Origin: an uncultured bacterium
GTDB lineage: Bacteria; Omnitrophota; Omnitrophia; Omnitrophales; Aquincolibacteriaceae
Assembly: GCA_964410905.1 (NCBI GenBank)
Contig: CAYPIR010000011.1
Span: 1,813-65,812, forward strand
Reading direction: 5' to 3'
Length of the DNA stretch: 64,000 nucleotides
The notes under the pieces were generated by a model. It was not told the origin of the DNA. It saw nothing but the letters and a program-made list of their open reading frames with translations, and did no database searches. How positions within the stretch are numbered: the first letter of the stretch is position 1; every line of letters begins with the position of its first letter. A program made the position numbers and the translations under genes. Positions 2,720-64,000 of the stretch are shown here, one piece after another.

Positions 2720-3184
2720 ATGAAAATAACAGATTTTCTTAATTTAAAAGCCATTAAAGTTGACTTGGATTCGACGACGAAAGAAGATGTTCTTTCCGAA
2801 ATGGTTGATGCTCTTGCTGAGTCAAAAGATATTGGCGATAAAAAAACTGTTTTGAAGGCTTTGCTTGAGCGTGAAAATTTGGGGTCTACGGGCATTGGCC
2901 AGGGCATTGCAATTCCTCATGGAAAAACAGATAAAGTTGACGGACTTATTGCCGCGCTCGGAGTGAGCAAGAAGGGAGTTAATTTTGAGGCGTTAGACGA
3001 TGAACCGGTCTATATTTTATTTTTACTTGTTGCTCCCAAAGATGCCGCTGGAGCGCATTTGAAGGCTTTGGCGCAAATCTCTAGGCTTTTGCGTGATACA
3101 TATTTTTGTGAACTTATGCGTAAATGTGAAACAGCAAAAGATGTTTTCGATTTGATCGCAAAAGAAGAAAATCGCAAAGCCTAA
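2720..3184 (+). CDS. ptsN: PTS EIIA(Ntr)-type nitrogen regulatory protein PtsN
   Basis: 154 aa. EIIA type-2 fold with the phosphorylatable His in GIAIPHGKTD. Located downstream of hpf, as in rpoN-hpf-ptsN clusters. Confidence 0.8.
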   Translation: MKITDFLNLKAIKVDLDSTTKEDVLSEMVDALAESKDIGDKKTVLKALLERENLGSTGIGQGIAIPHGKTDKVDGLIAALGVSKKGVNFEALDDEPVYILFLLVAPKDAAGAHLKALAQISRLLRDTYFCELMRKCETAKDVFDLIAKEENRKA

Positions 3185-11170: not shown

Positions 11171-12976
11171 ATGACGGTTTTATTACAAGTAAACAATATT
11201 AGAAAAAGTTACGGAGCGAGGGCGCTTCTCGATAACGCCACGGCTACATTTGGCGATGACCAAAAAATAGGCGTAATTGGCAGAAACGGAGCGGGGAAGT
11301 CAACGCTTTGCAGAATCATCACGGGCCACGATACTGCTGACAGCGGGACTATTACAAGAAATTTCGCGCTGCGCTTAAGTTATTTGGAGCAGCACGACGC
11401 GTTTAAGCCGGGTGAAAATGTTTTGAGTTTTTTAAAGCGCGTAACGCGAGGAGAGCATTGGGAATGCGCTCAAATGGCGGCGCAATTCCAAATAAAAAAT
11501 GAAATGCTTGATGAGGCGGTCGGGAGTCTTGCCGGAGGGTATCAAACGCGCGTAAAACTTGCAGCGATGCTTTTAGGCGACCCTAACTTTTTAATACTGG
11601 ATGAACCTAGTAACTATCTTGACTTAAGTACTTTGATTTTGCTTGAAAATTTTCTTCTAAATTTCAAAGGCGGATACCTTGTAGTGTCGCACGATAGAGA
11701 GTTTTTGAAACGCACTTGCGATCATACGCTTGAGGTGGAGAACGGGCAGCTTGTGCTTTATCCGGGCGATGTAGAAGAATATTTTGGATTTAAAGAAGAA
11801 CAATTAAAACAAGCTGAAGCGTATAACAGAGGCGTTGATAAAAAACGCGAGCAGTTGCAGACATTTATTGATAAATTTAAAGCGAAAGCGACAACTGCGA
11901 CGCGGGCACAGTCAAAAATGAAGCAGCTTGCCAAACTAAAAACAATAGAAATCGCTCACCCCATGAACAATGTGAATATTCAAATTCCCACTGTTGAAAG
12001 AAAGACAGGAGTCGCGCTTTCATGTGAAGATTTAACAATAGGCTATCCTGAAAAAGATATCGCAAAAAAGATTCATCTGGAAATTGAACGCGGCAAACAC
12101 GTGGCGGTTCTTGGTAATAACGGCGAAGGTAAAACAACTTTTCTTAAAACTATTGTCGGAAATCTTGCGCCAAAGGCGGGCGGCTTCAAGTGGGGGACTG
12201 GGCTTAAGGTGGCGTATTACGCGCAGCACGTTTTTACAACGCTCTCGCCGGAGGACGATATTTTGACGCATCTCTCGCGCGAGCGGGCAGAAGGCGTAAG
12301 CCGACAAGATGTATTGGATATGGCGGGCTGTTTTCTTTTCAAAGGCGATGATGTTGAAAAAAAAATAAAAGTATTGAGCGGAGGAGAGCGAGCGAGGCTT
12401 GTCCTGGCGGGAATTTTGCTTTCAAAAAGTCATGTTCTTTTACTGGATGAACCTACAAACCATTTGGATTTTGAAACCGTTGAGTCTTTGGCTCGAGCGC
12501 TTAAAAATTTTAACGGCACAGTTATTTTTATTAGCCACGACAGAACGTTTGTAAATTTGCTCGCGACAAGCATAGTTGAGGTAAAGCGCGGCCGCATTAC
12601 GCATTATCCGGGCAGTTATGAAGATTATGTTTATCACTTAGAGCAGATTGCTCGCGGCGAGATAGAAGACGATACCAATAATGATTTGCCTGAACGAGAA
12701 AGCCTCAAAGAAAACGAGGCGGAAAAAGTAATCGAAGAACCAAAAAAAACGCCACTTTCTGAAATAAAAAAAATCCAGAAACAGATGGAAAAAAGCGAAG
12801 GGCGTATGAAACATTACATCGCTGAGCGCGACAGAATTTTAAAAGAAATGGCGGACAATCCGCTTCATTATTCAAAAGACCGAAACGCGAAATTGAAAGA
12901 CGCGCAAATCCAAATAGAAAACGCGGAAGAAGAGTGGCTTTCTCTTCAATCTAAATTAGAAAAATTACAAAAGTGA
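11171..12976 (+). CDS. ABC-F family ATPase (tandem ABC domains, no TM domain)
   Basis: Two Walker A motifs (GRNGAGKST, GNNGEGKTT), two signature motifs (LAGGYQTRV, LSGGERARL) and a C-terminal coiled-coil arm. No membrane domain. Confidence 0.8.
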   Translation: MTVLLQVNNIRKSYGARALLDNATATFGDDQKIGVIGRNGAGKSTLCRIITGHDTADSGTITRNFALRLSYLEQHDAFKPGENVLSFLKRVTRGEHWECAQMAAQFQIKNEMLDEAVGSLAGGYQTRVKLAAMLLGDPNFLILDEPSNYLDLSTLILLENFLLNFKGGYLVVSHDREFLKRTCDHTLEVENGQLVLYPGDVEEYFGFKEEQLKQAEAYNRGVDKKREQLQTFIDKFKAKATTATRAQSKMKQLAKLKTIEIAHPMNNVNIQIPTVERKTGVALSCEDLTIGYPEKDIAKKIHLEIERGKHVAVLGNNGEGKTTFLKTIVGNLAPKAGGFKWGTGLKVAYYAQHVFTTLSPEDDILTHLSRERAEGVSRQDVLDMAGCFLFKGDDVEKKIKVLSGGERARLVLAGILLSKSHVLLLDEPTNHLDFETVESLARALKNFNGTVIFISHDRTFVNLLATSIVEVKRGRITHYPGSYEDYVYHLEQIARGEIEDDTNNDLPERESLKENEAEKVIEEPKKTPLSEIKKIQKQMEKSEGRMKHYIAERDRILKEMADNPLHYSKDRNAKLKDAQIQIENAEEEWLSLQSKLEKLQK

Positions 12977-13971
12977 GACATTACAATTCCTTCAAAAGAA
13001 GCCAAAATTCCCGTGATGGCTCGCGAGGTTTTTACGGCAGGGCAAACGAACATTTTGAACCGCGTTATGAACCGCGTCAAACTTCGCGAGAAAATCCAGC
13101 GTTGAAAAAGTTTAAAGAAACTGTCGCGATTGATCCGAAACCTCGTATCCGTCTTGAAGATGGTTCAAATGAACTTAGTATGAGAGTTATGGATTTGATT
13201 GCTCCCATAGGACGCGGGCAGCGCGGGCTTATTGTCGCTCCGCCGGGTTCTGGGAAAACTACATTTCTAAAACAAATTTGCAATTCCGTGATTAAGAGCT
13301 CGCCGGATATTAAGGTTTACTGTCTCTTAATTGACGAGCGCCCCGAAGAAGTTACGGATTTTAGACGCGGCGTTCAAGCTGACGTTAGATGGTCGTCAAC
13401 TGATGAGACATATGGACATCACATTGAAACGGCTGATAAATTGATGAATGAAATTTATGAAGAAGTATTGATGGGCAAGCACATTATGCTTCTTGTGGAT
13501 TCTCTCACGCGTCTTTCAAGAGTTCATAACGCCGAGCGTTCTTCTGGCGGGCGAACGCTTTCCGGCGGTGTGGACGCGCGCGCGTTAGAAATTCCGCGCC
13601 GTATTTTTGGTTCCGCGCGGTGCGTGGAAAATGGAGGGTCGCTTACAATACTCGCGACGGTTTTGGTGGATACCGGGAGTAGAATGGATCAAATTATTTT
13701 TGAAGAGTTCAAGGGAACGGGGAATATGGAAATTTTTTTATCACGTGAAATTTCTAATCAGCGAATTTTCCCCGCCGTCGATATTTTAAAAAGCGGGACG
13801 CGCAAAGAAGAACTGTTGTTTACGGCGGAAGAGTTAGAGCCGATACGAAAAACAAGACGTGTGTTGGCGGGTATGAAACCTACGGAAGCGATAGCCGCGC
13901 TTTTGACGCAACTAAAAAAACATTCTACAAATCGCGAGTTTTTGCAAGCGATAGAAAAGATTGGCAAATGA
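12973..13971 (+). CDS. rho: Transcription termination factor Rho: ATPase/RecA-like core only, apparently lacking the N-terminal OB-fold RNA-binding domain
   Basis: GTG start overlaps the upstream stop (GTGA). The 332 aa align with the Rho core: [22 protein letters not shown] (P-loop), [60 protein letters not shown]. The N-terminus is instead an Arg-rich low-complexity segment. Confidence 0.8.
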
Positions 13972-14201
13972 AAACTAATTCAGACTTGGGCGTGCAGCCG
14001 CTAGACGCGCTAATGACAAACTTAGGTCTTACTAATCATAGCCTTGTCGAGGCTTCAACAGAACAGCTTTCGCATAAGGTTATTCATAAGGCGAGGATTG
14101 GGCGAAGACTTACACCGAGAATGAAGACCAAAGTTTTAAACGCTCTTCACCTGGCATGTCCTGAAAAAAGTTTTGCGCATAGAGACCTTTTTAACTATTG
14201 A
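13968..14201 (+). CDS. Hypothetical small protein (77 aa)
   Basis: ATG overlaps the rho stop (ATGA). No recognisable motif; coding status rests on ORF integrity and translational coupling only. Confidence 0.35.
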   Translation: MKTNSDLGVQPLDALMTNLGLTNHSLVEASTEQLSHKVIHKARIGRRLTPRMKTKVLNALHLACPEKSFAHRDLFNY

Positions 14202-14240: not shown

Positions 14241-14507
14241 GTGAGTTGGTTTTATCGTTATCGCCCTTTGCGGTATTTTGCCCTTGCGACCAATTCGCCG
14301 ATACATAATAGCGAATCCGCTTCGCAGTATTCGTCCACTACGTCATTTTGCACGAAACATAGTGGCATTGCAGAATCCATAGGCGATCAACGCTTGGAGC
14401 CTGCGACATTAAAAAACAACGAGCAGGATGACTTTAGAATTAAATCTGTCCATGAATTAGCTGACATCAACAAGGATGACGGAAACGAATGGCGAGCCAG
14501 AAAATAG
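14241..14507 (+). CDS. Hypothetical small ORF (88 aa); the intact member of a dispersed repeat family, carrying the conserved PATLKNN-QDD-KSV-EL peptide
   Basis: GTG/TTG start after AAAGG. The sequence from 14291 to 14440 is homologous at nucleotide and peptide level to blocks at 46995-47100, 51258-51445 and 21927-21959. Confidence 0.3.
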   Translation: MSWFYRYRPLRYFALATNSPIHNSESASQYSSTTSFCTKHSGIAESIGDQRLEPATLKNNEQDDFRIKSVHELADINKDDGNEWRARK

Positions 14508-14566: not shown

Positions 14567-14595
14567 TTGAAGCAAAAAAAAATTTACTGTAATAT
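14567..14595 (+). promoter_or_regulatory. Candidate sigma-70-type promoter for the polyamine operon (TTGAAG, 17-nt spacer, TAATAT)
   Basis: TTGAAG at 14567-14572, 17-nt spacer, TAATAT at 14590-14595, about 65 nt upstream of the 14662 start in an AT-rich leader. Confidence 0.35.
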
Positions 14596-14661: not shown

Positions 14662-16164
14662 ATGAGTGAATTCAAATATCCCAAAATCAAAGCCCAAGTT
14701 CCAAAAATTAAACAAAAATTCTCTGGGAAAATTCTCGTTATCGGCTGCGGCGGTGTGGCGCAATGCGTGGTTCCGCTTTTGCTAAGACATCTTAATACTC
14801 CCGCCTCAAAAATAACAATTATGGATTTTGTGGACAATAGATTTCGTGTCCAAGATTCGCTCAAAAAAGGCGTTCACTATGTTTTTGACCGTATCACAAA
14901 AGATAACTACAAAAAACTTCTCGTGAAATATGTCGGAGCCGGAGATTTAATTGTTGACCTTGCGTGGAACATTGAAGCGTGGGCGATTCTTGATTGGTGC
15001 CGCGAAAACGAAGTTCTTTATGCGAACACCTCCATTGAAGAATGGGATCCTTACCGCGATGATAAACGCACAGATCCGACTCTTTATACTCTTTATGCGC
15101 GACATATGAAACTTCGCGCCATTATGGCGAAACAATGGAAGGGCGTAAAAGGGACAACTGCGATAGTCGATCACGGCGCGAATCCCGGCCTTGTGTCTCA
15201 CTTTACAAAAAAAGCATTAATTGATATTGGACAAAAAGTTTTAAAAGAAAAAAAGAATGACGCGCGCCGAACAAAACTAGAACAATTTATCGCTGAAAAA
15301 AACTTCGCGAAACTCGCGCAAATTTTGGGCGTTAAAACTATTCACATAAGCGAGCGCGATACTCAGATTACGGACGCGCCTAAAAAGGTAAACGAGTTTG
15401 TTAACACTTGGTCGATAGAAGGTTTTTATGAAGAAGGCGTCGCGCCAGCCGAAATGGGTTGGGGAACTCATGAGAAAAAATTGCCCATCGGTGCTCACGA
15501 ATATAAAACAGGCCCTAAGAATCAAATTTGCTTAAATTCTCTTGGAATGAATACTTGGGTGAAGTCTTGGGTTCCGTGCGGCGAGATAAACGGAATGGTG
15601 ATTCGACACGGTGAGGCGTTCAGCATTTCTGATCGGCTGACAGTTTGGCAAAACGGAAAAGCGGTTTATCGTCCAACCGTCCATTATGCTTACTGCCCGT
15701 CTGACGCGGCGATTCTCTCTTTGCATGAACTTAAAATGCGCCAATACAAAATGCAGGATAACTTGCGGATTTTGTCTGACGATATTGTTGACGGACGCGA
15801 TGAATTGGGCGTTCTTTTGATGGGGCACGATTTTAAATCATGGTGGTGCGGCTCTTTGCTTGATATTCATACAACACGAAAACTTCTGCCGCATCAAGAA
15901 GCGACAACTCTTCAAGTCGCGGCGTCTGTCGTGGCGGCGGTCATATGGATGATACAAAATCCTAAAGAAGGGTTCTTGCTGCCTGACGATGTCGATCACG
16001 AATTCATTTTAAAATTTGCGACGCCTTATATTGCCCCTTTGGTTTCAATTCCATCGGATTGGACGCCGCTTAAAAATTTGAATCAAAAATATTTGAAGTT
16101 TGGCGCGCAAATGCCAAAAGAAAAAGATCTGTGGCAATTCACTACATTTTTAGTGGAGCGATGA
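14662..16164 (+). CDS. Homospermidine synthase-like (saccharopine dehydrogenase NAD(P)-binding family)
   Basis: N-terminal Rossmann motif ILVIGCGGVAQCVVPLLLRH resembles the Hss N-terminus, and the ~500-aa length fits. Lies adjacent to an ornithine decarboxylase gene. Confidence 0.6.
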   Translation: MSEFKYPKIKAQVPKIKQKFSGKILVIGCGGVAQCVVPLLLRHLNTPASKITIMDFVDNRFRVQDSLKKGVHYVFDRITKDNYKKLLVKYVGAGDLIVDLAWNIEAWAILDWCRENEVLYANTSIEEWDPYRDDKRTDPTLYTLYARHMKLRAIMAKQWKGVKGTTAIVDHGANPGLVSHFTKKALIDIGQKVLKEKKNDARRTKLEQFIAEKNFAKLAQILGVKTIHISERDTQITDAPKKVNEFVNTWSIEGFYEEGVAPAEMGWGTHEKKLPIGAHEYKTGPKNQICLNSLGMNTWVKSWVPCGEINGMVIRHGEAFSISDRLTVWQNGKAVYRPTVHYAYCPSDAAILSLHELKMRQYKMQDNLRILSDDIVDGRDELGVLLMGHDFKSWWCGSLLDIHTTRKLLPHQEATTLQVAASVVAAVIWMIQNPKEGFLLPDDVDHEFILKFATPYIAPLVSIPSDWTPLKNLNQKYLKFGAQMPKEKDLWQFTTFLVER

Positions 16165-21626: not shown

Positions 21627-23543
21627 ATGAGAAGAATTAAAAAAAATTTAATAATCTCAATCGCATATCTTCTAGCCATATCTTCCCCAAGTTCCCAATC
21701 TTTCGCGGGTGATGGTCCGCAAATTTCAAGCTCGCATGAGCAAGATGTGTTGGTTCAAACCTCCTCCGCCGAAGCTCAAGCGCAATCTGCCTCACGAAAG
21801 GTTGCGGTTGTTAAACCGGCCGCGACATCAACAGCGAAAAAACATCTTAGTATCAATAGAAAGCCACCAGCTGTAAAAGCGGCTACTGCGGTTGATGTTC
21901 AAACGGCTACAACTCCTTCAAGTCATCCTGCGACATTAAAAAACAACGCGCAGAATGACGTAATGGACGAGGGCGGCGGCAATATCCGTTACGAACAAAT
22001 TGAACAAACAGATATTCCAGGCGTGAAATTGCCAACGCTTGAAATTCGTAAGTCGACTCAGTCAAGTGGTATGGATGTAAATCCTTTTGCCGATCAATTT
22101 TTTGTTCCGGCAAATCAGAAGACCGCAAATCGCGTGGAACTTGTTCGCGGATTTCCCATAATCAAGACGCCGAATAAATCCAAAAACACCGAATATTCCA
22201 TTGTTACGGATTTCAAATCAAACATCTTAAAATCTCGCTACCTTCCCGGTCTTAAAAATATAAAAGAAATTGACAGCTATATTAAAAGTAATGCTCAAGT
22301 CGCTCAATACGCGGGGACGGAGATTAGGCAACTTCCAGTCCCAACTGTCCAGGGCGGCGTAACAACTCTTTATTTTGTTGGAGAAAAAGCGTTTACGGAT
22401 GCCACCTCCGCGGCTCAAGCGGTAGATTTTGTTAAATTGGCAGTTGAATCATACGGCGGAAACTTTGCTGAAGTTGTGAAATCCGCGCCGGTTTATGTCC
22501 CAGAGCCTGAACCTGTCCTTGAAATAAAAACGCCCGCGCAGTTTAAACGCGAAGAAGAGTTGATGCTTAAGTTCACGGATCAACTTGGTATCGGTGAAAA
22601 GATGTATGGCGTGTTATATGGAGAAAATTCTGGAACGCCGATTACCTGGCAATCGTTTGGCGAAACAAGTTGGCGTATGACAAACCTTTCGGCAAGACAT
22701 TATGATACGCAGGTTGGATATTGGGCAAACCGCATTGTGTTTGGCGGTATTCGCTTTCCTTTAAATAATCTTTCGCCGTTCGTTGAATCAATTGTAAGTA
22801 TGGACTCAAGCGATACGTCCTGGACAAATAATCTTAGACTTTATGTCGGTATGGAATGGCGGCCTTTGGCTCGCAATCCTTGGCTTGTCAATTTTCGTCC
22901 ATACGGCGGGATCCCAATTTTGGAATGGATGCGGAACTATCGTTTTTATATTAAATACGGTGAACAATACAATATTAAAAACGAAATTCTCGGCGCGCAA
23001 CATTATGACCTTATTTGGGGCGTTCAATGTTTTTATGAATGGGGAACGGACTTGTCGCCACTTGACGAAGGAAAACCGGAAACTTTTGCCGACTATATCC
23101 GTCAATATGTTTGGGGAGAATATTTTGGCGACTACTATGTTTCCAAAACAGGATTTGCCAACAAAGCCGAGAAGCCAAGTTACAATGCCATCACGGCAAA
23201 CTCATCGCTTATTTTGGGTATTAAACTTCCCGGCATTCCTCTGCCAGAAAATCCCATAAATAACGAACTGGTTTTTATGCCTTATATGCGGTTTGAGCAT
23301 GTCAATAATTCTGATTATTCTGACTACTATCAAAACCAATACTTCATTGCCGCGGGCGTTCGCATTATGCCTTTCCGCGCATATAAATGGAAAGAAAACG
23401 AATGGTTATCCAAGATTGCTATTTTTGGAGAATGGGTCGGAGTCGGCCGCGCGCAGCGCAACAAACAAGATCCGGATACGCCGCCGTATATTCCCGACTA
23501 TGATTTGCGTTTTGGCGTTAAATTTTCAAGCAGGCGGTTTTAA
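21627..23543 (+). CDS. Secreted outer-membrane beta-barrel-type protein with an Ala/Ser/Thr/Pro-rich N-terminal linker (hypothetical)
   Basis: ATG 21627 gives a signal peptide (MRRIKKNLIISIAYLLAISSPSSQSFA). The low-complexity region contains the repeat-family block HPATLKNNAQND. A W/Y/G-rich ~480-aa C-terminal domain ends in an aromatic residue (..FSSRRF), typical of OMP C-termini. The stop overlaps the next start (TAATG). Confidence 0.5.
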   Translation: MRRIKKNLIISIAYLLAISSPSSQSFAGDGPQISSSHEQDVLVQTSSAEAQAQSASRKVAVVKPAATSTAKKHLSINRKPPAVKAATAVDVQTATTPSSHPATLKNNAQNDVMDEGGGNIRYEQIEQTDIPGVKLPTLEIRKSTQSSGMDVNPFADQFFVPANQKTANRVELVRGFPIIKTPNKSKNTEYSIVTDFKSNILKSRYLPGLKNIKEIDSYIKSNAQVAQYAGTEIRQLPVPTVQGGVTTLYFVGEKAFTDATSAAQAVDFVKLAVESYGGNFAEVVKSAPVYVPEPEPVLEIKTPAQFKREEELMLKFTDQLGIGEKMYGVLYGENSGTPITWQSFGETSWRMTNLSARHYDTQVGYWANRIVFGGIRFPLNNLSPFVESIVSMDSSDTSWTNNLRLYVGMEWRPLARNPWLVNFRPYGGIPILEWMRNYRFYIKYGEQYNIKNEILGAQHYDLIWGVQCFYEWGTDLSPLDEGKPETFADYIRQYVWGEYFGDYYVSKTGFANKAEKPSYNAITANSSLILGIKLPGIPLPENPINNELVFMPYMRFEHVNNSDYSDYYQNQYFIAAGVRIMPFRAYKWKENEWLSKIAIFGEWVGVGRAQRNKQDPDTPPYIPDYDLRFGVKFSSRRF

Positions 23544-31518: not shown

Positions 31519-31653
31519 TTTGCCGTGATTTTCGAGAGATGAGCCGCTTTGTGATATCAAAATGGTCAACGCCGTCTGCGTTGATGAAAATAAGCGGGTT
31601 TTATAAATGGAACAGTTATTGCTAAACAAATTCTCATAAGGCATACTTGCGAT

Positions 31654-32061
31654 ATGAAAAAACAAATTTTGATTTCGCTTATTTTACTATGTCTGGCCTG
31701 TCTCAATCTTGCCTCGGTTCGTAAAAACGAAGATCCAATTTTAAATACTCAAGCCGAAGGCGTTCTTTATCGGCAGAAAATGGAAGAAGAAAAAGACGGA
31801 GTAAAAGGGCCGCTTCTTTATCATGTCCGCAACAATCCGAGCGACACATTTTTTATTGACCCGCCATTCGCAAAAGACACTTCAAGTGAATATAGTTATG
31901 AAAAATCTGATAGCGCGGTCGGACGGGAAGATGTTAACTCGTGGTGGGATGACTCCAGCGATGATAATGCTTTAGAGGGCGAAAAAGGAGGATCATATAC
32001 TTCTGAGCGAACAGTTGAAGAAGCCGCAAACGATAGCTCTAATGACGATGGTTGGTGGTAG
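31654..32061 (+). CDS. Small secreted acidic protein (hypothetical, 135 aa)
   Basis: Signal peptide MKKQILISLILLCLACLNLASV followed by a D/E/S-rich sequence ending DDGWW. No recognisable domain. Confidence 0.35.
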   Translation: MKKQILISLILLCLACLNLASVRKNEDPILNTQAEGVLYRQKMEEEKDGVKGPLLYHVRNNPSDTFFIDPPFAKDTSSEYSYEKSDSAVGREDVNSWWDDSSDDNALEGEKGGSYTSERTVEEAANDSSNDDGWW

Positions 32062-44424: not shown

Positions 44425-45261
44425 ATGAAAACACTGGGAATAATTGCCGGTAATGGACGCTTCCCAATTCTTGTGGCAAAGGAAGCCAAAAAAGAAGACT
44501 ATCGCGTGGTCGTATGCGCTATTGAGCAAGAAGCCGAACCTTCGCTTGTCGATTTCTCAGATGCGTTCCGCTGGATGAAAATAGGAGAGATGAAACGACT
44601 CACTAATTTTTTTGCTGCGGAAGGAGTTCATGAAGCGGTTATGGCTGGCAAGGTTGAAAAAGTTAGACTTTTCAAAGAAAACGTTCGCCTTGATTTGGAT
44701 ATGATGGCGATACTTGTCAAGCTTAAAGACCACAAGGACGACTCTCTTCTTGGCGGCATCGCTGATTACCTATTTAAAAAAGGCGTAACGCTTCAAGATT
44801 CCACATTTCTTTTAAAACATTTGATGCCCGGCGCGGGAGTTTTGGGGAAGCGTTCGCCGTCAAAAGCAATACTTGAAAATATTAATTTTGGTTTTGAAAT
44901 GGCAAAGAAAATCTCGGGAGCGGATATCGGGCAGACCGTTGTTGTAAAAAATAAAGTGGTGCTTGCTGTTGAGGCGATAGAGGGAACGGACGAAGCAATA
45001 AAGCGTGGTGCCGAACTTGGGCGGGGAAAGATAGTGGTTGTAAAAGTCGCAAAACCCAATCAGGATATGCGCTTTGATGTGCCAGCGGTCGGGCTTAAAA
45101 CACTTGAAGGATTAATAGCGGCACGAGCTGAAGCGCTTGCGTTTGAAGCAAATAAAACACTTTTTATAGGGCAGGAAATTTTCGTAGAGAAAGCCAACCG
45201 TGCCGGCATCGTGCTTTACGGCATAGAAGAAAAGCTGACAGAAACAAAAATAAATGACTAG
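44425..45261 (+). CDS. lpxI: UDP-2,3-diacylglucosamine pyrophosphatase LpxI (DUF1009)
   Basis: LGIIAGNGRFPILVAKEAKK N-terminus and overall 278-aa length match LpxI. Sits between lpxA and the next gene, where lpxI lies in LpxH-lacking lineages. Confidence 0.65.
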   Translation: MKTLGIIAGNGRFPILVAKEAKKEDYRVVVCAIEQEAEPSLVDFSDAFRWMKIGEMKRLTNFFAAEGVHEAVMAGKVEKVRLFKENVRLDLDMMAILVKLKDHKDDSLLGGIADYLFKKGVTLQDSTFLLKHLMPGAGVLGKRSPSKAILENINFGFEMAKKISGADIGQTVVVKNKVVLAVEAIEGTDEAIKRGAELGRGKIVVVKVAKPNQDMRFDVPAVGLKTLEGLIAARAEALAFEANKTLFIGQEIFVEKANRAGIVLYGIEEKLTETKIND

Positions 45262-46834
45262 CGGAAAAACAAAAGTATCAAAGCCCGCCTCACGCGAAAG
45301 CAGAGAAATCGAAGCCATTTATGAAGTAACGCGTCAAATGAGCGCGCCGTTTTCTTTGGAAGATCGCCTCCGCAATGTTCTTAATTCTTTACATCAAAAA
45401 ATGGGAATGCATCGTGGAACGCTCGCAATTCTTGACGCGGAAGGTGAAAATCTCACAATAGAAATTGCCCATAGCATAGATGATCAAGCGATTAAAAAAG
45501 GGCGAAATAAGGTTGGCGAGGGAATAACGAGAAAAGTCGTTGAGGCGGGAGAGCCGATAGTGGTTTCTAATATCGGTGAAGAACCGCTTTTTTTAGACAT
45601 AACTGGGATACGGAAAGATTTTAAAAAAAATCGCATAGCGTTTATTTGCATTCCTATAAAAATTGACCAAAAAACAATAGGCGCGCTTAGTGTTGATAGG
45701 CTTTTTGAAGAAAATGTTTCGTTAGATGAGGATCTAAGACTTCTTACTATTATTAGTTTTGTTATCGCACAAGCCGTCGCGAACTTTCGTCTGAGAGAAC
45801 AAGAAAAGGAAAAACTGCAGACAGAGAATATTCAGCTTAAGCGAGAACTAGCCAAAAAATTTCATCCGACAAATATTATTGGCGAAAGTAAACGGATGGA
45901 AGAAGTTTACGAAGCTATTGATATGGTGAGCCGCACGCGTTCGACAGTGCTTATTCGCGGGGAAACTGGAACGGGTAAAGAACTAGTAGCCCACGCAATT
46001 CATTACGGAAGTTTTAGATTTAAAGGACCGTTTGTAAAAGTGTCATGCGCGGCTCTTCCTGAAACTCTTCTTGAAAGTGAGCTGTTTGGCTATGAAAAAG
46101 GAGCGTTTACAGGAGCAGTGAATCAAAAGCCCGGTCGTTTTGAAATGGCGGATGGCGGGACGCTTTTTTTAGATGAAGTGGGCGATATATCCGCGGCAAT
46201 GCAGATAAAACTTCTGCGTGCGTTGCAGGAACGCGAGTTTGAGAGAGTCGGCGGGACGCAAACCATATGCGTGGATGTTCGAGTGATTGCCGCGACAAAT
46301 AAAGATTTGGAAAGAGCGGTTCGGGAGAATCAATTTAGAGAAGATCTTTATTATCGTTTGAATGTTGTTCCGATTTTTTTGCCGCCGCTTCGTGAACGCA
46401 GAGAAGATATTCCGCTTCTTGTTACGCATTTTTTAAAGAAAGCGGCAATTGAGAATGGGAAAAAAGTCCGCTACGTTTCGGACGATGCCATGAAGTATTT
46501 GATGGGATACGCGTGGCCGGGCAATATTCGTGAATTGATGAATGTTATTGAACGTGCGGTTTTGCTTTGCAAAACAGACACCATCGAACCAGATGTATTT
46601 CCCATACCCGGCAGAAAAAATCAACCGACTTCTATTTATATTAACTCTTTGCCTGAAAAAGTTGTTCTTGGGAAACCTTCCGCTTTGCTTTCTGAGGCTG
46701 TGGAAGAATTAGAGAGGAAAATGATACAAAACGCTTTGGAGAAAAATTCTGGGAATCAACGCAAAACGGCAAAAGAGTTAGGAATTACTGAAAGAGTTTT
46801 GGGATACAAAATAAGAGGCTACGGTCTTAAGTAA
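45254..46834 (+). CDS. Sigma-54-dependent transcriptional activator (GAF - AAA+ - Fis-type HTH; NifA-like architecture)
   Basis: N-terminal GAF-like domain. AAA+ sigma-54 interaction domain with Walker A GETGTGKE, GAFTGA motif (EKGAFTGA) and Walker B LFLDEVGD. C-terminal HTH (QRKTAKELGITERVLGYKIRGYGL). Confidence 0.9.
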   Translation: MTSGKTKVSKPASRESREIEAIYEVTRQMSAPFSLEDRLRNVLNSLHQKMGMHRGTLAILDAEGENLTIEIAHSIDDQAIKKGRNKVGEGITRKVVEAGEPIVVSNIGEEPLFLDITGIRKDFKKNRIAFICIPIKIDQKTIGALSVDRLFEENVSLDEDLRLLTIISFVIAQAVANFRLREQEKEKLQTENIQLKRELAKKFHPTNIIGESKRMEEVYEAIDMVSRTRSTVLIRGETGTGKELVAHAIHYGSFRFKGPFVKVSCAALPETLLESELFGYEKGAFTGAVNQKPGRFEMADGGTLFLDEVGDISAAMQIKLLRALQEREFERVGGTQTICVDVRVIAATNKDLERAVRENQFREDLYYRLNVVPIFLPPLRERREDIPLLVTHFLKKAAIENGKKVRYVSDDAMKYLMGYAWPGNIRELMNVIERAVLLCKTDTIEPDVFPIPGRKNQPTSIYINSLPEKVVLGKPSALLSEAVEELERKMIQNALEKNSGNQRKTAKELGITERVLGYKIRGYGLK

Positions 46835-46854
46835 TGTCTACAAAAATGTAGACA
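46835..46854. promoter_or_regulatory. Perfect palindrome TGTCTACAaaaaTGTAGACA: candidate enhancer (UAS) site and/or terminator hairpin
   Basis: 8-bp arms with a 4-nt centre, 1 nt after the activator stop codon. The TGTCTAC/GTAGACA core recurs in two further palindromes nearby. Confidence 0.45.
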
Positions 46855-46864
46855 CGGGCAATTT

Positions 46865-46891
46865 TTCTACAAAATTGTAGAATTTTGTTTT
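46865..46891 (+). terminator. Hairpin TTCTACAAaaTTGTAGAA followed by a T-run: candidate intrinsic terminator of the activator gene, or a second UAS palindrome
   Basis: 8-bp inverted repeat sharing the TCTACA/TGTAGA core, followed by TTTTGTTTT. Confidence 0.4.
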
Positions 46892-46955
46892 AGTATAGAC
46901 GTAGATTGCGCATGCCGGTTAATTTAGACGGGTCTAGTTCTAAAGTTATCCTTGT

Positions 46956-46981
46956 GTATGTCTACTAATTAGTTGACATAC
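46956..46981. promoter_or_regulatory. 26-nt near-perfect palindrome GTATGTCtACTAATTAGTtGACATAC: candidate enhancer-binding site
   Basis: Symmetric apart from two mirrored positions. Shares the TGTCTAC core with the palindromes at 46835 and 46865. About 80 nt upstream of the -24/-12 promoter. Confidence 0.4.
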
Positions 46982-46994
46982 ACACGATCGACTT

Positions 46995-47100
46995 GCGTCG
47001 GTGGCCAATTCGCTGATACGAAACGGCGAGTTGCCTTTGTCATACTCGTCCGATACGCATTCTGGTATAGATTTTGCTTTTATTTATGTCTGACGAATGG
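46995..47100 (+). repeat. Degenerate copy of the same repeat family, overlapping the glnA3 sigma-54 promoter region
   Basis: CCAATTCGCTGATAC (47005-19) and ..TACTCGTCCGATACGCATTCTG match 14291-14305 and 14328-14350. The translated peptide ANSLIRNGELPLSYSSDTHS matches ATNSPIHNSESASQYSSTTS of ORF 14241. Confidence 0.45.
47062..47078 (+). promoter_or_regulatory. Sigma-54 (-24/-12) promoter cTGGTATagatTTTGCt upstream of glnA3
   Basis: GG at 47064-47065 and GC at 47076-47077 have the exact consensus spacing (TGGCAC-N5-TTGC). It is ~75 nt upstream of the GS start codon and downstream of the palindromic sites and the activator gene. Confidence 0.5.
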
Positions 47101-49356: not shown

Positions 49357-49550
49357 TCGGAAATTTACTCTATAAATAAAAAACGTCATTAATTCCAAAT
49401 CTTCACAGATTCTCATATGGCATTGTTTGTCATTAATGATGTTTATTTATACACAACGTCATTCTGAACCTGTGTGTAGCCGCCGCGACAATTGTTTCAG
49501 GAGCGATGGCAGAACGCACGAAATTTAGTGCGTATCTCATTTATACAATA

Positions 49551-49582
49551 CTTATTAGCGCGATCACTTATTAGCGCGATCA
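49551..49582. repeat. Perfect tandem duplication of a 16-nt unit (CTTATTAGCGCGATCA x2)
   Basis: Exact adjacent copies at 49551-49566 and 49567-49582, about 190 nt upstream of the porin-like gene. Confidence 0.8.
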
Positions 49583-49774
49583 TTTATCCGGTGGCCGAGA
49601 TTCTCGCGGACAATGTTGAAAAAATGGCAAGAATTGACTATAGAAGGCTTTTGGACGTATTCCGGGGGCTTAAGTCTCCGAAGTCATCAGAAAGCGGTAA
49701 AGTTTCTTGAAAAATGACCGAAACAGTGTAGTATTCACGCAGTTTTTTAAAACAAAAACAAGGGAGATTAGACG

Positions 49775-51073: not shown

Positions 51074-51101
51074 TAAGTTTCTTGCTTTTTAGTTTCACAA
51101 A

Positions 51102-51142
51102 AAATCCCGTTTGGGCTAGCGCTCAAGCGGGATTTTTGTTTT
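51102..51142 (+). terminator. Rho-independent terminator after the porin gene
   Basis: Arms AAATCCCG / CGGGATTT enclosing an imperfectly self-paired loop (TTGGGCTAGCGCTCAAG), followed by TTTTGTTTT. Confidence 0.55.
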
Positions 51143-51257
51143 ACTGCCAATGGGTTCCCGCCAAAAGCATTCGAGAATTGTAAAAGTCAGTAATTTTGCA
51201 GACAGACTTGTTGAGGGTTTTTTGTTTTTTTATTATCGCTGGCGAAAGCGAGACAAT

Positions 51258-51445
51258 CTAGTCATTCTGCGCAAATCGTAGCGTAGTTGCAGAATCCAGA
51301 GGAAATTAGCCTTTGGTTGCATTTGTAGAGCAACCACCCGATACGCACGATTAAAGAAATCGTGTCGGATCTTGTAGATCCTGCGACGTTAAAAAGCAAC
51401 CCGCAGGATGATCGAGTATCAAAATCTGTCTACGAGTTATTTGGC
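51258..51445 (+). repeat. Degenerate copy of the dispersed repeat/small-ORF family (frameshifted, in-frame stop) in the leader of the giant gene
   Basis: Blocks GTCATTCTGCGCA (51261-73), TTGCAGAATCCA (51287-98) and CCTGCGACGTTAAAAAGCAAC (51380-51400) match 14342-54, 14368-79 and 14400-21. The encoded peptides SFCANRSVVAESRGN* and DPATLKSNPQDDRVSKSVYEL match SFCTKHSGIAESIGD and EPATLKNNEQDDFRIKSVHEL, but lie in two different frames. Confidence 0.5.
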
Positions 51446-51606
51446 ATGTACAAGAAGGGCAAAGCTTAGTCTACTAATAATCGATAAAAATCTATTTTGG
51501 GCAGATTATTAGTAAATAATCAATTAAAAATTATATTTTTTTCATTTCGCGAGCGATAAATTTAAACATTATTTTTAATGAACCCGTTTCGCGAGAGGAG
51601 AAAAAT

Positions 51607-63600: not shown

Positions 63601-64000
63601 CAGGACGCGGGAATTACTTCGAGTCTTAACGCCGGCGGGAAAATCGAAATCGATTTTGCTATTCTGCCGGACATGGAGGACATAAAAGGATTTCTTGAAA
63701 ACTACAATCAAAATATGACCAAAGATTCCGCCGCTCAAATTGTGGCATTTTCTGTCGGGCAAGGATTTTGGAATTCGCTTGGAAGTTATGACCAAGTTTC
63801 GGATTTGATGTCGCATTTTAGGCAAGCGGTTAAAGAAGATAAAATAAAATTTGGGGCGGCGGGAATTGTTTTGTTTGATGAAAATGGAAATATCGCTTAT
63901 GACAAAAACGGTGAAGTTTTGACTACGGCCGCGCTTCCTGTAACGCTTTATGAGGAGACAACTCTTTTCGGGAATTCTATAAGATGGATCGCGGAAACTT
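51607..64000 (+). CDS. Giant secreted multidomain protein (>4130 aa, 3' end beyond window): signal peptide, parallel beta-helix, YD-repeat block 1, (alpha/alpha)6 glucoamylase-like domain, YD-repeat block 2, C39-like peptidase-like module, glycine-zipper TM segment
   Basis: ATG 51607 sits 7 nt after GAGAGGAG. Frame 1 stays open to the window end: no stop seen on manual codon reading, and the ORF track lists no frame-1 ORFs after 51093. Signal peptide MKKTFLFIRLIAGLTALIFS. PbH1-like repeats (NGVSIKGEDANATILNGEN..ITVTGG..IRNSIFSDNKDYGIF..IEGNIFINTHIGV.., ~51920-52460). YD repeats (FYDENGEAVWIKRADNSEWFYQNGRPYIYQD; SYRYGMLKKIISADGREINLSYEYDSDGKKITVF; FYDAAGELTK). Alpha-helical domain at ~55150-56350 (GFWAEILAAIARGDF, YDGGAFQMFWPLIHVDE, AAFGAAPHYTLQFLKN). 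C39-like block ..QEML.SEG.. to ECGFRVIAHIAGDHFVVIKRV (~61400-61880). Hydrophobic glycine-zipper helices (FFPLIIVWAFWASVALSVASVIVAP, GAAYGGAMGVGLSV; ~61905-62560). Confidence 0.8.
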   Translation, partial: MKKTFLFIRLIAGLTALIFSSEQIILANGSLPSSVYTISSKSPTVDSTQELSATFNSQINDATTDFFVTQNSPLSMSDTPQNVYGENGELRTESLINSKTIHHVYQGESIQNAIEGAKAGDTIFIHVGIYKENLELKNGVSIKGEDANATILNGENKTGTQIIRALGNNRIEDITVTGGGAYSGTPSSAIKVDGDKVQIRNSIFSDNKDYGIFAAFDGHLLIEGNIFINTHIGVQLPKDKTQIRYNTFYECDIGVNVLNGTTPEIANNIFYGSKNSSIYEFNWASYAKGEASRGFLTAINNTFWANKEKPSAYGSAMPFMVEQQAEGNIKENPQFFDASNGDFRNLERERGAILPEALKRALTRASLFSYEVKIENILDEGAVTGYKTLYNDGSIEKFYNDGRDILDTTPPEINIADEIWTNQTSGEITYEVDGVLRTLAFEFFGETASITIEETDILGNKAAKTILLKQDLILPTGTLQIENFVGKANTREAVITVNAQDNAALKDLRFSADGGITWTEWTSCGVKKGLDINIDTTEILCQLRDRAGNITTLSANILKGDFASTINFISSNITNDENYILRYTIDGELHEEHWKLNSGENRLIVSIAQGGLAEYADFVVTLNAPSDSFKDIPQPLGTIPNDLISYTAEDGSLVSYSQGKLFSIEMTGDYCFYSPEFDDDGELVNGIVEFANGSRICYENGNVIRRIDSDGAKSIYDGDNHIVKKISENGEEVSFAYRFDEAENVSGILSTSNGASNFYDENGEAVWIKRADNSEWFYQNGRPYIYQDSFGNKYKYETAVSRDGMDITGFKTSLTYVLPSGQETWILYSDVAASYDEFAEIKNVFNAGLPKEITYESGGEVKEIVSTSGALVNLENGMLTGVDAGGNQTYTFDVDRLGNNENYFVVTQDGGDFSQKFNERGELIEIQMAGGESLKIKELKLDQIIFENGEFLSDLTRDENNLIGFVYNHLDGSRDFYQDGKIIKREDADGVITRYVSDAAAAFPESVLLPDGREYILSETINLNGEIERLMTLASVSLAGGEQLQFQNGNAAWLSAVKIISLNPQDIPSLLDNQFFVPSIKLTKAELKNLTVDENGDIFSGEILFSDGTQFFIEEGKIIKQATADGHLIELENTALENTQQQKEILAEPLTAKELEFRNQIIDAQLDYFTDGIGIDAATGLPVDSFAISAGEQSTYSQSTLVGFWAEILAAIARGDFPTQKLSQDEAFSKLNQLLQTYKEAQRDAGWKGILSFFSRGTATKEILDEETNEPTGEIITTYYWKNEFDQAGLGDALNLAMSLASVIGAFGNFDVAPEFNNQKDQILSTAREILLAQEEGFSAFYDAENDRFYGSVKLNQATGKWEFENYVMDRVFNEFRSGLIYLATKYPQYASSVKKLEVARSEYELQNGEKINIALTYDGGAFQMFWPLIHVDETKYPQFDVAIKNFLYAQADFAAHENIAGLLSAGANALSEYESKSGVQNTAETDERLFSDAGSLYGTAAAFGAAPHYTLQFLKNLIEQFPEIMTSAGFVDSIGFKTVLNEDEQTGEIFETTETVFSDSFFGVNQAAFLLSLLKIGQTYFSNYLKNEGLETEFDTLYQSFKWDLSPVTESNSTPPFGTEPADLLYQGDSEFPDGKLSGLVKQPSFIASIQDTDLGKGKVYNYLTNDGSFHHSEIEFGSDKNILKMNLQEYFLSPSHSGVATSILDGIDLNILDSSIQKGVFYTPGNGAAGLVVANDSKIGAVTRMPFDFKNVEYPVGIWANFNERDFSGYDFFSVPVRVDSANAGKVRLKFEFKGMGEIFISDFLDTDWNYLSLPIPKSFSNLSQLAISIQTLDGEAASGDVLLGPISAIKIRTSNDINWQVLLGKTESEIKNLVLRALVENKEPETQIEARDILRNFSLDDNGRVVNGILELATGDKQYFQNGRLVKWIFADGKTILFENGLASFILDLSRGKLETGRFYYERNFKGDIQSFVLRDNDSERVFSLSGEMVSYFREGVRAFYENGEMKFIKTSTAELNDLEFSSEGELLSARVTLSDGREFDLDKEGVQTLYLDNGATVFVKDGRTIAIETPQNGRINLTYRLDALGRMFGVDVSFFETVQGEEILREMDLFDYLNLAGREIERNIIFDEAVCVLDSAIAGGFSVGQLKQGEITTAVKNSSSNEVAYTYRYAEASGTTLGAVVKPTRENTRFEDYDFFTLNVRENPNFLGADNFYLKLKTTNMQTRFSGDIQGVSVDEKLFGFSLQGITGDFGEMTLEVIRDENFIGQTQGVYLNDIKFLNLRKFDEILEMQIGADAEIFQRLKTKGDKLVFIGEKIAAYSPFVLDGAVEFLNMPTQMTYKGTKADLGRVEAFERFDGSRVELNEQNEVSRVILSDGSVHEFEVSGNFTVGHISGIDQAAGTTNELSYRYGMLKKIISADGREINLSYEYDSDGKKITVFTDAASGEEQKFKDGKIISTDASTDLKTQYEYVNGVLSGARLTYNGRTLSETQYEFAGDETRITDEEGTIWFYDAAGELTKHITTGGFLYEYSGHTQEAEDGGEISDDYKKELYESENLREVRLNGYEAKDGSWIKYDFSNGAEIRLASGIQAFNVEFDSEQKMKSGQLLFPDEMILEIENYVPVRGRLPSGEIFDCEIPLGESYELIQDEKGNYDGFSIAQDGIKWTYNAFGELIKTESEDGETNTFTYVRNASGEITDVIRKERKQADFNGVPFPKEIILETTGGQRLFDTGELAASHDGDGFLAAIYKEATNQWEVYTGTFNSEANRAGLNYFLSSIKTGEYFVMAVSDPNFYKADEETKSLLEGLGAGNVREIASQNMSWSFIGNESLSIGEGIESVKKLSSTYETTVTEKIITSQKFLFYKKTTYKYVTYTKQVPAEFLEADELSTITESIHEELIDVEAKSSWEGGQMFLNMLSAVHRAYSDFLIQSESLKIASDLQILVVYNEKNEMVFSRRMDGISSFYENGNVRETFSAEGELLSVHEYEQNSDGEWIVSKITLVKVRQDFEEESARLLNQIEQAKYDALLQLVWQDDVARLEINENVTAGLAAYDAHIAYLNSQLFRTVKQCKKIVFVTHCEKHTYEVPGVREMIYTAQNERRNLLVTGEEELAKIPGAIADKKIEIEQATLEKITELETQKQEFLLDILRKEMEPVITDIYRRVLGRDVSKEEFEEWILRYKETGAVNVEEVYQTLNDSDEKIVKQNQKNMIIRSVRDFLEDYLEADAAERETLLEELNLTKDETVALDSEEVDLILGWLNTRDLHFGQSAFLSLQEMLASEGVETSLETLGIQTILIDILTGVIHRFSAGELVISMFALERTAQIYAKQFAVVRYDFQDLLDLYKEACPDQETECGFRVIAHIAGDHFVVIKRVTETEVVMVETNKGEDGEVSIARRDEFMKRWLDGEGSGHLLVSDSKAVQTKKLTNEQSRKIRGAFFPLIIVWAFWASVALSVASVIVAPFSPTFGKILGYAALVASVISIVASVGNFIVQGVKSIFTQIAANGIISTLKAGISQIGGIIVSGVKAVGRFFSNAWTFTKDAFTGGLKALGSGLMKIKNYAAANVGGLATKEGLLKAISNNLVLASINWNVSNGLEILGLDSRLTRIISSAVGAAYGGAMGVGLSVNTTQEAMAEFWKSGISAFALQGVNEISRHLDLPPPLLSIVETVGSVTLEFFNTELTLDEGFKKILPDVVNGATAWGIDFLGESLELDSRITKLLGLSVTSLAGGLVADYLNPKRDISFDLDSIWERVKDAFLSKESLGGTLSISAEVVIDKFELDESLWKSGVARIVAGMFNDFLSDTPAKFDFIKSIGKSVDESIDDFLNKDNLVNLLEAIDKLGFSEGIEKYATFLFTQGALQEMTKGGETIAYLIEHGIFRNASFWIDGKLKNVLMVEANGKTVMITYEAHGDKKTITGIYEENEDGSYQYVSWEVDENGEITNIKVIKKDSSGGIKTEEDLKTGNFKITFEDFNGNEYGEIFYDKESGKIGFSNQDAGITSSLNAGGKIEIDFAILPDMEDIKGFLENYNQNMTKDSAAQIVAFSVGQGFWNSLGSYDQVSDLMSHFRQAVKEDKIKFGAAGIVLFDENGNIAYDKNGEVLTTAALPVTLYEETTLFGNSIRWIAET

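Follow-up and report, generated by a model that had tools for sequence, protein, structure and literature searches.

Background

Repetitive extragenic palindromic (REP) sequences and the REPINs built from them are present tens to hundreds of times in a genome, nearly always outside genes, and the gene for their cognate Y1 transposase, the REP-associated tyrosine transposase (RAYT), is flanked by the repeats. [quoted passage not shown] Bacterial interspersed mosaic elements (BIMEs) of enterobacteria, including the IHF-binding RIB/RIP type, are mosaics of palindromic units and extra motifs, some of which bind proteins, and Rickettsia palindromic elements (RPEs), which measure about 100–150 bp, are frequently intragenic. 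REPINs are REP doublets that form a hairpin around a variable spacer and show compensatory changes, with REP singlets as their remnants, and they are mobilized by RAYT tyrosine transposases (Bertels & Rainey 2011, PMC3116915). RPEs and other intragenic MITEs can lie in frame within coding genes (PMC10969869). Here, we analysed a family of short hairpin repeats in a stretch of 64,000 nucleotides (hereafter the window, which was also the scope of the repeat survey) from contig CAYPIR010000011.1 of an uncultured Candidatus Omnitrophota bacterium. The Omnitrophota are a phylum known only from metagenomes, and to our knowledge, though no literature search aimed at one was made, no repeat family of the REP/REPIN-like kind has been reported from them before.

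The repeat resembles REP sequences and REPINs in that it consists of short imperfect palindromes (here ~38 nt), is lineage-specific and mostly extragenic, and forms doublets, each of which folds as a single long hairpin, has a spacer of variable length and keeps its pairs where bases change, while a singlet can be interpreted as a remnant. It differs from them in having five units in 64 kb, no RAYT among the Pfam-scanned proteins of the window and no GTAG-like 5′ tetranucleotide, as well as in a loop that is better kept than the arms, one intragenic copy and a conserved tail beyond the hairpin. As in BIMEs, hairpin units are combined with a 5′ module and an operator-like palindrome, in orders that differ between the 14-kb and 47-kb loci, but there is no sequence relationship, far fewer copies are seen and protein binding is here putative. 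Like RPEs, it is a hairpin repeat with intergenic copies and a copy in the reading frame of a protein gene, where it may add a short peptide to a region that tolerates it; unlike them, it has a single 38-nt unit within a gene, and it lacks the signature of terminal inverted repeats and target-site duplications of a classical MITE. With paralogous small RNA families and structured 5′-leader RNAs it shares an irregular, extended hairpin whose internal loop is conserved, whose tip varies and whose U-G pairs are specific to the + strand, whereas it shows no cross-species conservation, no Rfam family and no consistent transcript position, and has one member in coding sequence.

Three loci of the window (14342–14476, 51261–51455 and 21922–21959) are related beyond chance, and they make up a real but small, lineage-specific and non-coding repeat family, which is a smaller observation than the one first claimed. 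We favour the reading that it is a lineage-specific, REP/REPIN/BIME-like mosaic repeat, with confidence and doubt in about equal measure. A repeat of this kind fits best because the unit has a fixed geometry, because the hairpin doublets have a free spacer and because a near-identical singlet sits in an unrelated coding sequence; the side modules shared in mosaic fashion with a third spacer and the absence of the element from orthologous sites speak for the same fit.

Related loci in the window

An original prediction, made from the letters alone, had described homologous blocks at several places, and this holds for the loci at 14, 21.9 and 51 kb. The 33-nt block CCTGCGACRTTAAAAARCAACNNGCAGRATGAY is present at 14400, 21927 and 51380; in blastn-short searches against the window, the first two are identical at 31 of 33 positions (E 2.6e-8; 33/35 had been stated) and the first and third at 28 of 32 (E 0.006). 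The most complete copies had been placed at 14291–14440 and 51258–51445. Their homology extends over 14342–14476 and 51261–51455 (hereafter c14 and c51), and 14291–14341 is not common to both. The two are collinear and ~70% identical with a length difference of 61 nt, and nhmmer relates them with an E value of 4e-7 over the whole span and of 2e-7 and 0.002 for two parts. The Smith-Waterman alignment of the two scores 60, a value that none of 500 dinucleotide shuffles reached (19.5 ± 2.3). What had been described as a 76-nt insertion at 51.3 kb is a net insertion of 61 nt, the figure of 76 nt being the length of the spacer between the two units of c51, which measures 15 nt in c14.

Two covariance models of the repeat were used (R1 and R2, of which R2 describes the 38-nt unit). 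The further copies that the original prediction proposed to search for were not found in the window with the models of the whole element and of the unit, even with all filters off: R2 gave the five units 36–45 bits and anything else 20.5 bits at most.

Two further copies that had been proposed fared differently. At 46995–47100, where a partial copy was said to overlap the glnA3 sigma-54 promoter, there is a marginal match at 47005–47063, directly upstream of that promoter, and it belongs to a different module. Its only match is 14290–14348 (nhmmer E 0.016), with an alignment score of 33 that none of 500 shuffles reached (highest shuffle 32). It holds none of the blocks first quoted and ends at the start of the sigma-54 −24 element (47063), and the 51-kb copy is without this 5′ module. 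The family is a mosaic, in that the 47-kb region has both the 5′ module and the tail palindrome of c14, in a different order. The weak copy reported at ~49445–49470, on the other hand, is a chance similarity, because its score was equalled by 112 of 500 shuffles and because its GTCATTCTG consists of in-frame codons of a broken ammonium-transporter (amt) gene (Pfam PF00909, E 6.6e-9); neither nhmmer nor the covariance models match there.

The amt relic is an observation in its own right. It occupies 49445–49600 in the spacer between glnA3 and the porin gene and covers positions 93–134 of the PF00909 profile, and its frame is shifted by a 16-nt tandem duplication (49550–49565 and 49566–49581). 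Together with glnA3 and the activator gene before it, it marks a decayed nitrogen-assimilation locus.

Structure of the repeat

The building block is a 38-nt imperfect palindrome composed of two 11-nt arms, GTCATYCTGCG and CGCAGRATGAC, on either side of a 16-nt loop, and the five units align without gaps at this fixed 11+16+11 geometry (Table 1). The long copies c14 and c51 are doublets of the unit (HP1 and HP2) and the third copy, c21, is a single unit. The blocks quoted in the original prediction turn out to be the arms of the palindrome: GTCATTYTGC is the reverse complement of GCAGRATGAC, and TTGCAG the complement of CTGCGA. Since the arms are self-complementary and the loops of HP1 and HP2 are unrelated, an inverted and a direct orientation of the units in a doublet fit equally. 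The outer arms serve as inverted repeats, yet the homology of c14 and c51 runs ~45 nt past the 3′ arm, into a tail with a TGTC-N12-GACA site.

Sequence conservation is uneven over the element. In the HP2 loop 13 of 15 positions are invariant, so that it is better kept than the arms, and the stems are far less substituted than the linkers. The singlet c21 is 94% identical to HP2 of c14, compared with 85% between c14 and c51 over the same part and ~70% between them overall.

Table 1. Coordinates of the repeat copies, their parts and nearby features in the window
Feature	Position	Strand	Remarks
Long copy c14	14342–14476	+	Doublet with 15-nt spacer and ~45-nt tail; inside spurious open reading frame 14241–14507; homologous to 51261–51455
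Unit HP1 of c14	14342–14379	+	GTCATTTTGCA, 16-nt loop, TGCAGAATCCA; R2 36.3 bits, E 9e-7
Unit HP2 of c14	14395–14432	+	Conserved loop ACATTAAAAAACAAC; R2 39.3 bits
Tail palindrome of c14, operator-like	14447–14466		TGTCCATGAATTAGCTGACA, TGTC-N12-GACA; 16/20 identical to the 46959 palindrome
5′ module of c14	14290–14348	+	Small hairpin ATTCGC/GCGAAT; common only to 47005–47063
Open reading frame, 88 aa	14241–14507	+	GTG start; judged no gene
Sigma-70 promoter of homospermidine synthase operon	14567–14595	+	TTGAAG-17-TAATAT; conserved block in relatives
Single unit c21	21922–21959	+	GTCATCCTGCG, loop ACATTAAAAAACAACG, CGCAGAATGAC; R2 44.7 bits, E 6e-9
Palindromes TGTCTAC-N6-GTAGACA (three, 20 bp)	46835–46978		At 46835, 46864 (degenerate) and 46959
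47-kb marginal relative	47005–47063	+	5′ module only; directly upstream of glnA3 sigma-54 promoter TGGTATAGATTTTGCT
Long copy c51	51261–51455	+	Doublet with 76-nt spacer and tail; whole-element covariance model 198.7 bits; between porin terminator 51100–51137 and giant gene (ATG 51607)
Unit HP1 of c51	51261–51298	+	R2 38.4 bits
Variable spacer of c51	51299–51374	+	61 nt longer than that of c14; two extra hairpins at tip of long hairpin (alignment gaps, folds)
Unit HP2 of c51	51375–51412	+	Loop ACGTTAAAAAGCAAC; R2 41.1 bits
Palindrome-like site in tail of c51	51427–51446		TGTCTACGAGTTATTTGGCA; 16/20 identical to the 46959 palindrome

Folding and the case for an RNA

A doublet folds best as a single, long and irregular hairpin, with outer arm paired to outer arm and inner arm to inner arm, and with a 5-bp helix between the two loops (UAGYG with CRUUA) that leaves an 11-nt A-rich internal loop conserved. 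As + strand RNA, c14 folds in this way with −32.1 kcal/mol (z −4.9), and DNA parameters give it the same fold with a z score of −2.1. The + strand of c51 has the same architecture (z −3.75), its 61 nt of extra length being placed at the hairpin's tip. The nested structure has 23 pairs, and over the two doublets every one of its 46 cells is paired, as opposed to 33–55% for slid controls and 73% for local hairpins of single units. Pairing is kept by two one-sided changes of the U-G to C-G type and by one compensatory U-A to C-G change. A check for covariation had been proposed, and it brings out this one compensatory pair, a result that 237 of 500 shuffles equal; with two sequences, covariation carries no statistical weight. 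Both doublets depend for their outer helix on T-G (U-G) pairs, which exist on the + strand only. Strand preference is inconsistent, given that c21 folds better on the − strand (z −5.75 versus −3.3 on the +) and c51 equally well on both.

These folds raise the alternative that the long copies are paralogous structured RNAs of the + strand, either small RNAs or cis-acting modules, which would present the A-rich internal loop AAAAARCAAC to a protein or a target RNA, with the copy in the outer-membrane-protein (OMP) mRNA as a third binding site. The shared architecture and z scores of the two copies are as expected of such an RNA, and so are the intactness of all 23 consensus pairs (none broken at ~30% divergence, with the changes noted above), the + strand-specific outer helix, the loop that is better conserved than the arms and the length variation at the tip. 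A plausible promoter, TTGTTG-17-TATTAT at 51208–51236, can also be read from the sequence just upstream of c51. However, there is no Rfam match up to an E value of 10, the element is missing both from the orthologous site in six relatives and from every collection searched, c14 lies outside the leader of the homospermidine synthase gene (hss) and has no convincing promoter or terminator on either strand, and the covariation and the strand preferences just described fall short of what an RNA would lead one to expect. We regard this alternative as doubtful, though it deserves to be taken seriously.

The original prediction had also placed all copies in 5′ leaders, and on this point it did not hold. 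Their contexts differ: c14 lies 100–220 nt upstream of the hss sigma-70 promoter, c21 within coding sequence and c51 after the porin terminator, and c51 is the only copy that could be in a leader. The promoter block (TTGATG/TTGAAG, 17 nt, TA[G/A]TAT) is kept upstream of hss in six other Omnitrophota genomes. A 5′-leader RNA as a class is not supported, because c14 is upstream of this conserved promoter and the relatives that keep it are without the element. Rfam searches returned only noise, both with gathering thresholds on the whole window and with E values up to 10 on the intergenic regions. Promoter and terminator scans of both strands gave nothing convincing for a stand-alone RNA gene, and these scans are insensitive in that they also miss the conserved hss promoter.

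The promoter block itself, TATTTCTTGATGTG...TTTGATGTAGTATTCG, is strikingly conserved over seven Omnitrophota genomes while the upstream neighbour genes all differ; in the relatives (L004–L008 and L016) it lies just upstream of position 3001.

On inspection, several other classes of element were rejected. The repeats are not integron attC sites, as they have no RYYYAAC/GTTRRRY ends, nor are they template or variable repeats of a diversity-generating retroelement, for there is no reverse transcriptase and the differences are not adenine-specific. CsrA-type GGA loops were rejected (the GGA lies within stems), as were intrinsic terminators (no U-tract) and a hidden sigma-54 promoter inside HP1 (wrong GG/GC spacing).

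The unit within an outer-membrane-protein gene

The block at 21.9 kb had been described as lying in frame within open reading frame (ORF) 21627–23543, and this is confirmed: c21 encodes SSHPATLKNNAQND at residues ~99–111 of the OMP gene. In this gene the similarity extends precisely to the feet of the 38-nt hairpin and no further. The hairpin lies in a hypervariable N-terminal linker, whereas the conserved domain of the protein begins near residue 150, and around c21 the linker is unalignable even in the closest homologue (57% identity). The linker is disordered, and c21 is plausibly an insertion in the gene. Its 94% identity to HP2 of c14 points to recent copying between unrelated sites.

The same identity admits a different reading, in which the long copies would be − strand antisense RNAs of the micF type that repress the OMP gene in trans through the HP2 region. 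OMP mRNAs are classic targets of small RNAs, the − strand of c14 is complementary to OMP mRNA 21927–21959 at 31 of 33 positions, and a weak terminator-like − strand hairpin at 14325–14311 lies downstream of the element in that orientation. Scans and inspection nevertheless found no − strand promoter, the − strand version of the outer helix contains C-A mismatches, an A-run and not a U-run follows the corresponding − strand hairpin of c51, and the target site is itself a stable hairpin. We consider antisense regulation of this kind very unlikely.

Coding potential

Three options had been offered for the blocks, namely decayed paralogues of a small gene, pseudogene remnants of an OMP N-terminal region, and a cis-acting RNA or DNA element whose coding capacity is secondary; our results favour the third and neither of the coding options. 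In the coding alternatives the 88-aa ORF 14241–14507 would be the last intact member of a decayed family of small protein genes, or the copies would be fragments of an OMP N-terminal pseudogene. One frame is indeed open through all of c14, the translated blocks are alike (SFCTKHSGIAES versus SFCANRSVVAES; PATLKNNEQDD versus PATLKSNPQDD and PATLKNNAQND), and relics of genes do exist in spacers of this region, such as the amt fragment at 49.45–49.6 kb. The substitution pattern, whose comparison with codon-wise change had been suggested as a check, runs counter to this: the 44 substitutions between c14 and c51 are distributed 13:14:17 over codon positions 1, 2 and 3, with no excess at the third. 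Two of the codon differences that had been taken as synonymous, 14363 T>C and 14408 A>G, are partners in the compensatory base pair described above.

The proposed protein search with the 88-aa ORF found no homologue, itself included, among 5.8 billion proteins, nor a Pfam family, and the ORF was not called on Logan contig L001. All stretches of the three copies that are open in any of the six frames were also joined into an 843-aa composite, a query that would pick up ORFs annotated on additional copies as well as further in-frame insertions; it had no protein match at E values up to 10. Pfam likewise finds nothing in six-frame composites of the 14-, 47- and 51-kb spacers, and the same approach readily detects the amt relic at 49 kb. 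The ORF begins with GTG, sequence inspection reveals no evident Shine-Dalgarno sequence, and c51 is broken by stop codons and the 61-nt indel. The homology with the OMP gene is confined to the 38-nt hairpin, and a coding model leaves the palindromic organization unexplained. Coding is unsupported because there is no codon-phase bias, because homologues and Pfam matches are lacking and because the second copy is broken. The repeat is thus not coding, and the likeness of the peptides is a by-product of DNA similarity. The decayed-gene reading, the least probable of those considered here, is already largely refuted, and in practical terms the result warns annotators off calling the 88-aa ORF.

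Distribution in other genomes

The element is absent from the orthologous hss loci in 13 genomes, among them six Omnitrophota genomes with 77–79% protein identity that keep the promoter block, so the comparison with related genomes that had been proposed shows it missing from the orthologous hss sites. The unit model R2 has no match in 91 kb from related genomes. A 21-nt signature was found in none of 185,579 species-representative genomes and nowhere in IMG/VR, and its six matches in JGI metagenomes are all unrelated by their flanks and GC content and due to chance. The family is, as far as these sequence comparisons reach, lineage-restricted; the nearest relative in the protein database is 80% identical (in Hss), and the comparisons are thus without closer relatives.

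Tail palindromes and the glnA3 region

The motif TGTC-N12-GACA occurs five times in the window where 0.34 are expected (15-fold over-representation). Three of the five exact matches fall in the intergenic regions discussed here. Two of the five belong to the palindromes before the glnA3 sigma-54 promoter. A search of the window with the 46959 palindrome, allowing up to five mismatches, returned only the two element tails, at 16/20 each, and the palindrome at 46835. The glnA3 palindromes are related to the tails and are not part of the repeat. They begin right after the stop codon of gene 45254–46834, which encodes a GAF/sigma-54 activator with an HTH_8 domain (Pfam), and the glnA3 sigma-54 promoter at 47063–47078 is a good match. 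From this arrangement, the palindromes at 46835, 46864 and 46959 are probably the upstream activator sites of glnA3 for that activator. The link of the copies to sigma-54 that the original prediction raised is in this way retained indirectly, through the resemblance of the tails to the glnA3 upstream palindromes, and no sigma-54 promoter stands beside either long copy: inspection found none, and no exact TGG-N8-TTGCW occurs within them or from the tails to the downstream start codons. A second sigma-54-like promoter, TGGAACAGTTATTGCT at 31608–31623, was seen in the spacer before ORF 31654–32061 (135 aa, no Pfam family).

The tails suggest a further alternative, that the long copies are duplicated regulatory DNA with operators for the regulator of the TGTCTAC-N6-GTAGACA palindromes at glnA3. 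This would bring hss, and with it polyamine synthesis, and the giant gene under nitrogen control, with the hairpin arms as further protein-binding half-sites. The over-representation of the motif, its three exact matches in these intergenic regions, the exclusive resemblance of the two tails and the 46835 site to the 46959 palindrome, the location of the c14 site ~100 nt upstream of the hss −35 box and the presence of the 5′ module also at 47 kb are consistent with such a duplication. Operators leave unexplained, however, the ~135 nt of collinear homology with its nested hairpin and the tail-less unit inside a coding sequence. Furthermore, as palindromes the tail sites are weak (arms largely unpaired, 16/20 to the model site), no sigma-54 promoter is seen downstream of either tail, and the hss upstream regions of the relatives are without such a site. 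We judge this alternative quite improbable.

A combination of RNA and operator would be a new + strand RNA module of the Omnitrophota, in which an RNA-binding protein or a partner RNA binds the AAAAARCAAC loop and a post-transcriptional regulon (hss, the giant gene and the OMP gene) is tied to the glnA3 nitrogen regulator via the operator-like palindrome; we hold this to be unlikely.

Proposed origin and spread of the units

In the favoured reading, that of a REP/REPIN/BIME-like mosaic repeat, dispersal of the units would take place in the DNA itself, a behaviour known from REP/REPIN, BIME, MITE and Rickettsia palindromic elements. Either a trans-acting transposase would copy the units in the form of single-stranded hairpins, or copying would proceed through recombination of one unit with another, and singlets would arise from doublets via deletion between the near-identical YCTGCG arms. 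As a secondary effect, the copies may supply both the hss operon and the giant surface-protein gene with an upstream binding site for the glnA3 regulator. As regards the mobility of the repeat, the agent of that mobility and its copy number, we infer rather than observe.

A number of observations weigh against this reading. The five units come from three loci in the 64 kb surveyed, one of them intragenic. No transposase, RAYT, integrase or reverse transcriptase was found among the Pfam-scanned proteins of the window. A GTAG-like tetranucleotide, a REP/REPIN feature, precedes only HP2 of c51 (CTAC, GGAG, TCTA and TCAA precede the others), and the target-site duplication of classical MITEs is lacking, with flanks CTAC/TTTA, TCTA/CGAG and TCAA/GTAA. 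The conserved HP2 loop is more typical of a functional RNA or a protein-binding loop than of a REP sequence, the U-G pairs restricted to the + strand fit an RNA better than a DNA hairpin, and the lower substitution of stems than of linkers indicates selection or conversion and not neutral decay.

If the REP/REPIN-like reading is true, small Omnitrophota genomes too carry hairpin repeats, and such repeats can land in frame in surface-protein genes and bring operator-like sites to new promoter regions. The practical value is modest: the repeat could serve as a strain-typing marker, and the two covariance models are usable on the full genome. The finding itself is modest and lineage-specific and opens no long-standing question.

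Gene content of the window

The window is a core chromosomal segment. The Pfam scan assigned housekeeping functions to many of its proteins (Lpt, phosphotransferase system, S-adenosylmethionine cycle, Rho, Dap, UvrA, FtsH, ribosomal proteins, DnaB, BamA and Lpx), and it further identified the GAF/sigma-54 activator with a type III glutamine synthetase after it, as well as a BBP2 porin and a giant beta-helix/RHS protein. Homospermidine synthase is encoded at 14662–16164 (hss), and its closest relatives, at 77–80% identity, are all from Omnitrophota metagenome-assembled genomes; the exact Hss protein is found on one NCBI contig and three short Logan contigs, and sequencing runs SRR27197510 and SRR11845624/5 contain this organism as well.

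The ORF downstream of c51 runs from 51607 past the end of the window at 64000, and is thus more than 12.3 kb long. It matches right-handed beta-helix and RHS repeat families and encodes a giant surface protein of the kind typical for Omnitrophota.

Upstream of c14, the Rho-like ATPase encoded at 12973–13971 has only 332 aa, and Pfam finds its ATPase domain and neither Rho_N nor Rho_RNA_bind. Its first ~60 residues are Arg/Ser-rich and apparently disordered, and its start codon shares bases with the stop codon of the ABC-F gene ahead of it. Directly 3′ of rho, a 77-aa ORF without a Pfam family (13968–14201) ends 140 nt before the 14-kb repeat copy.

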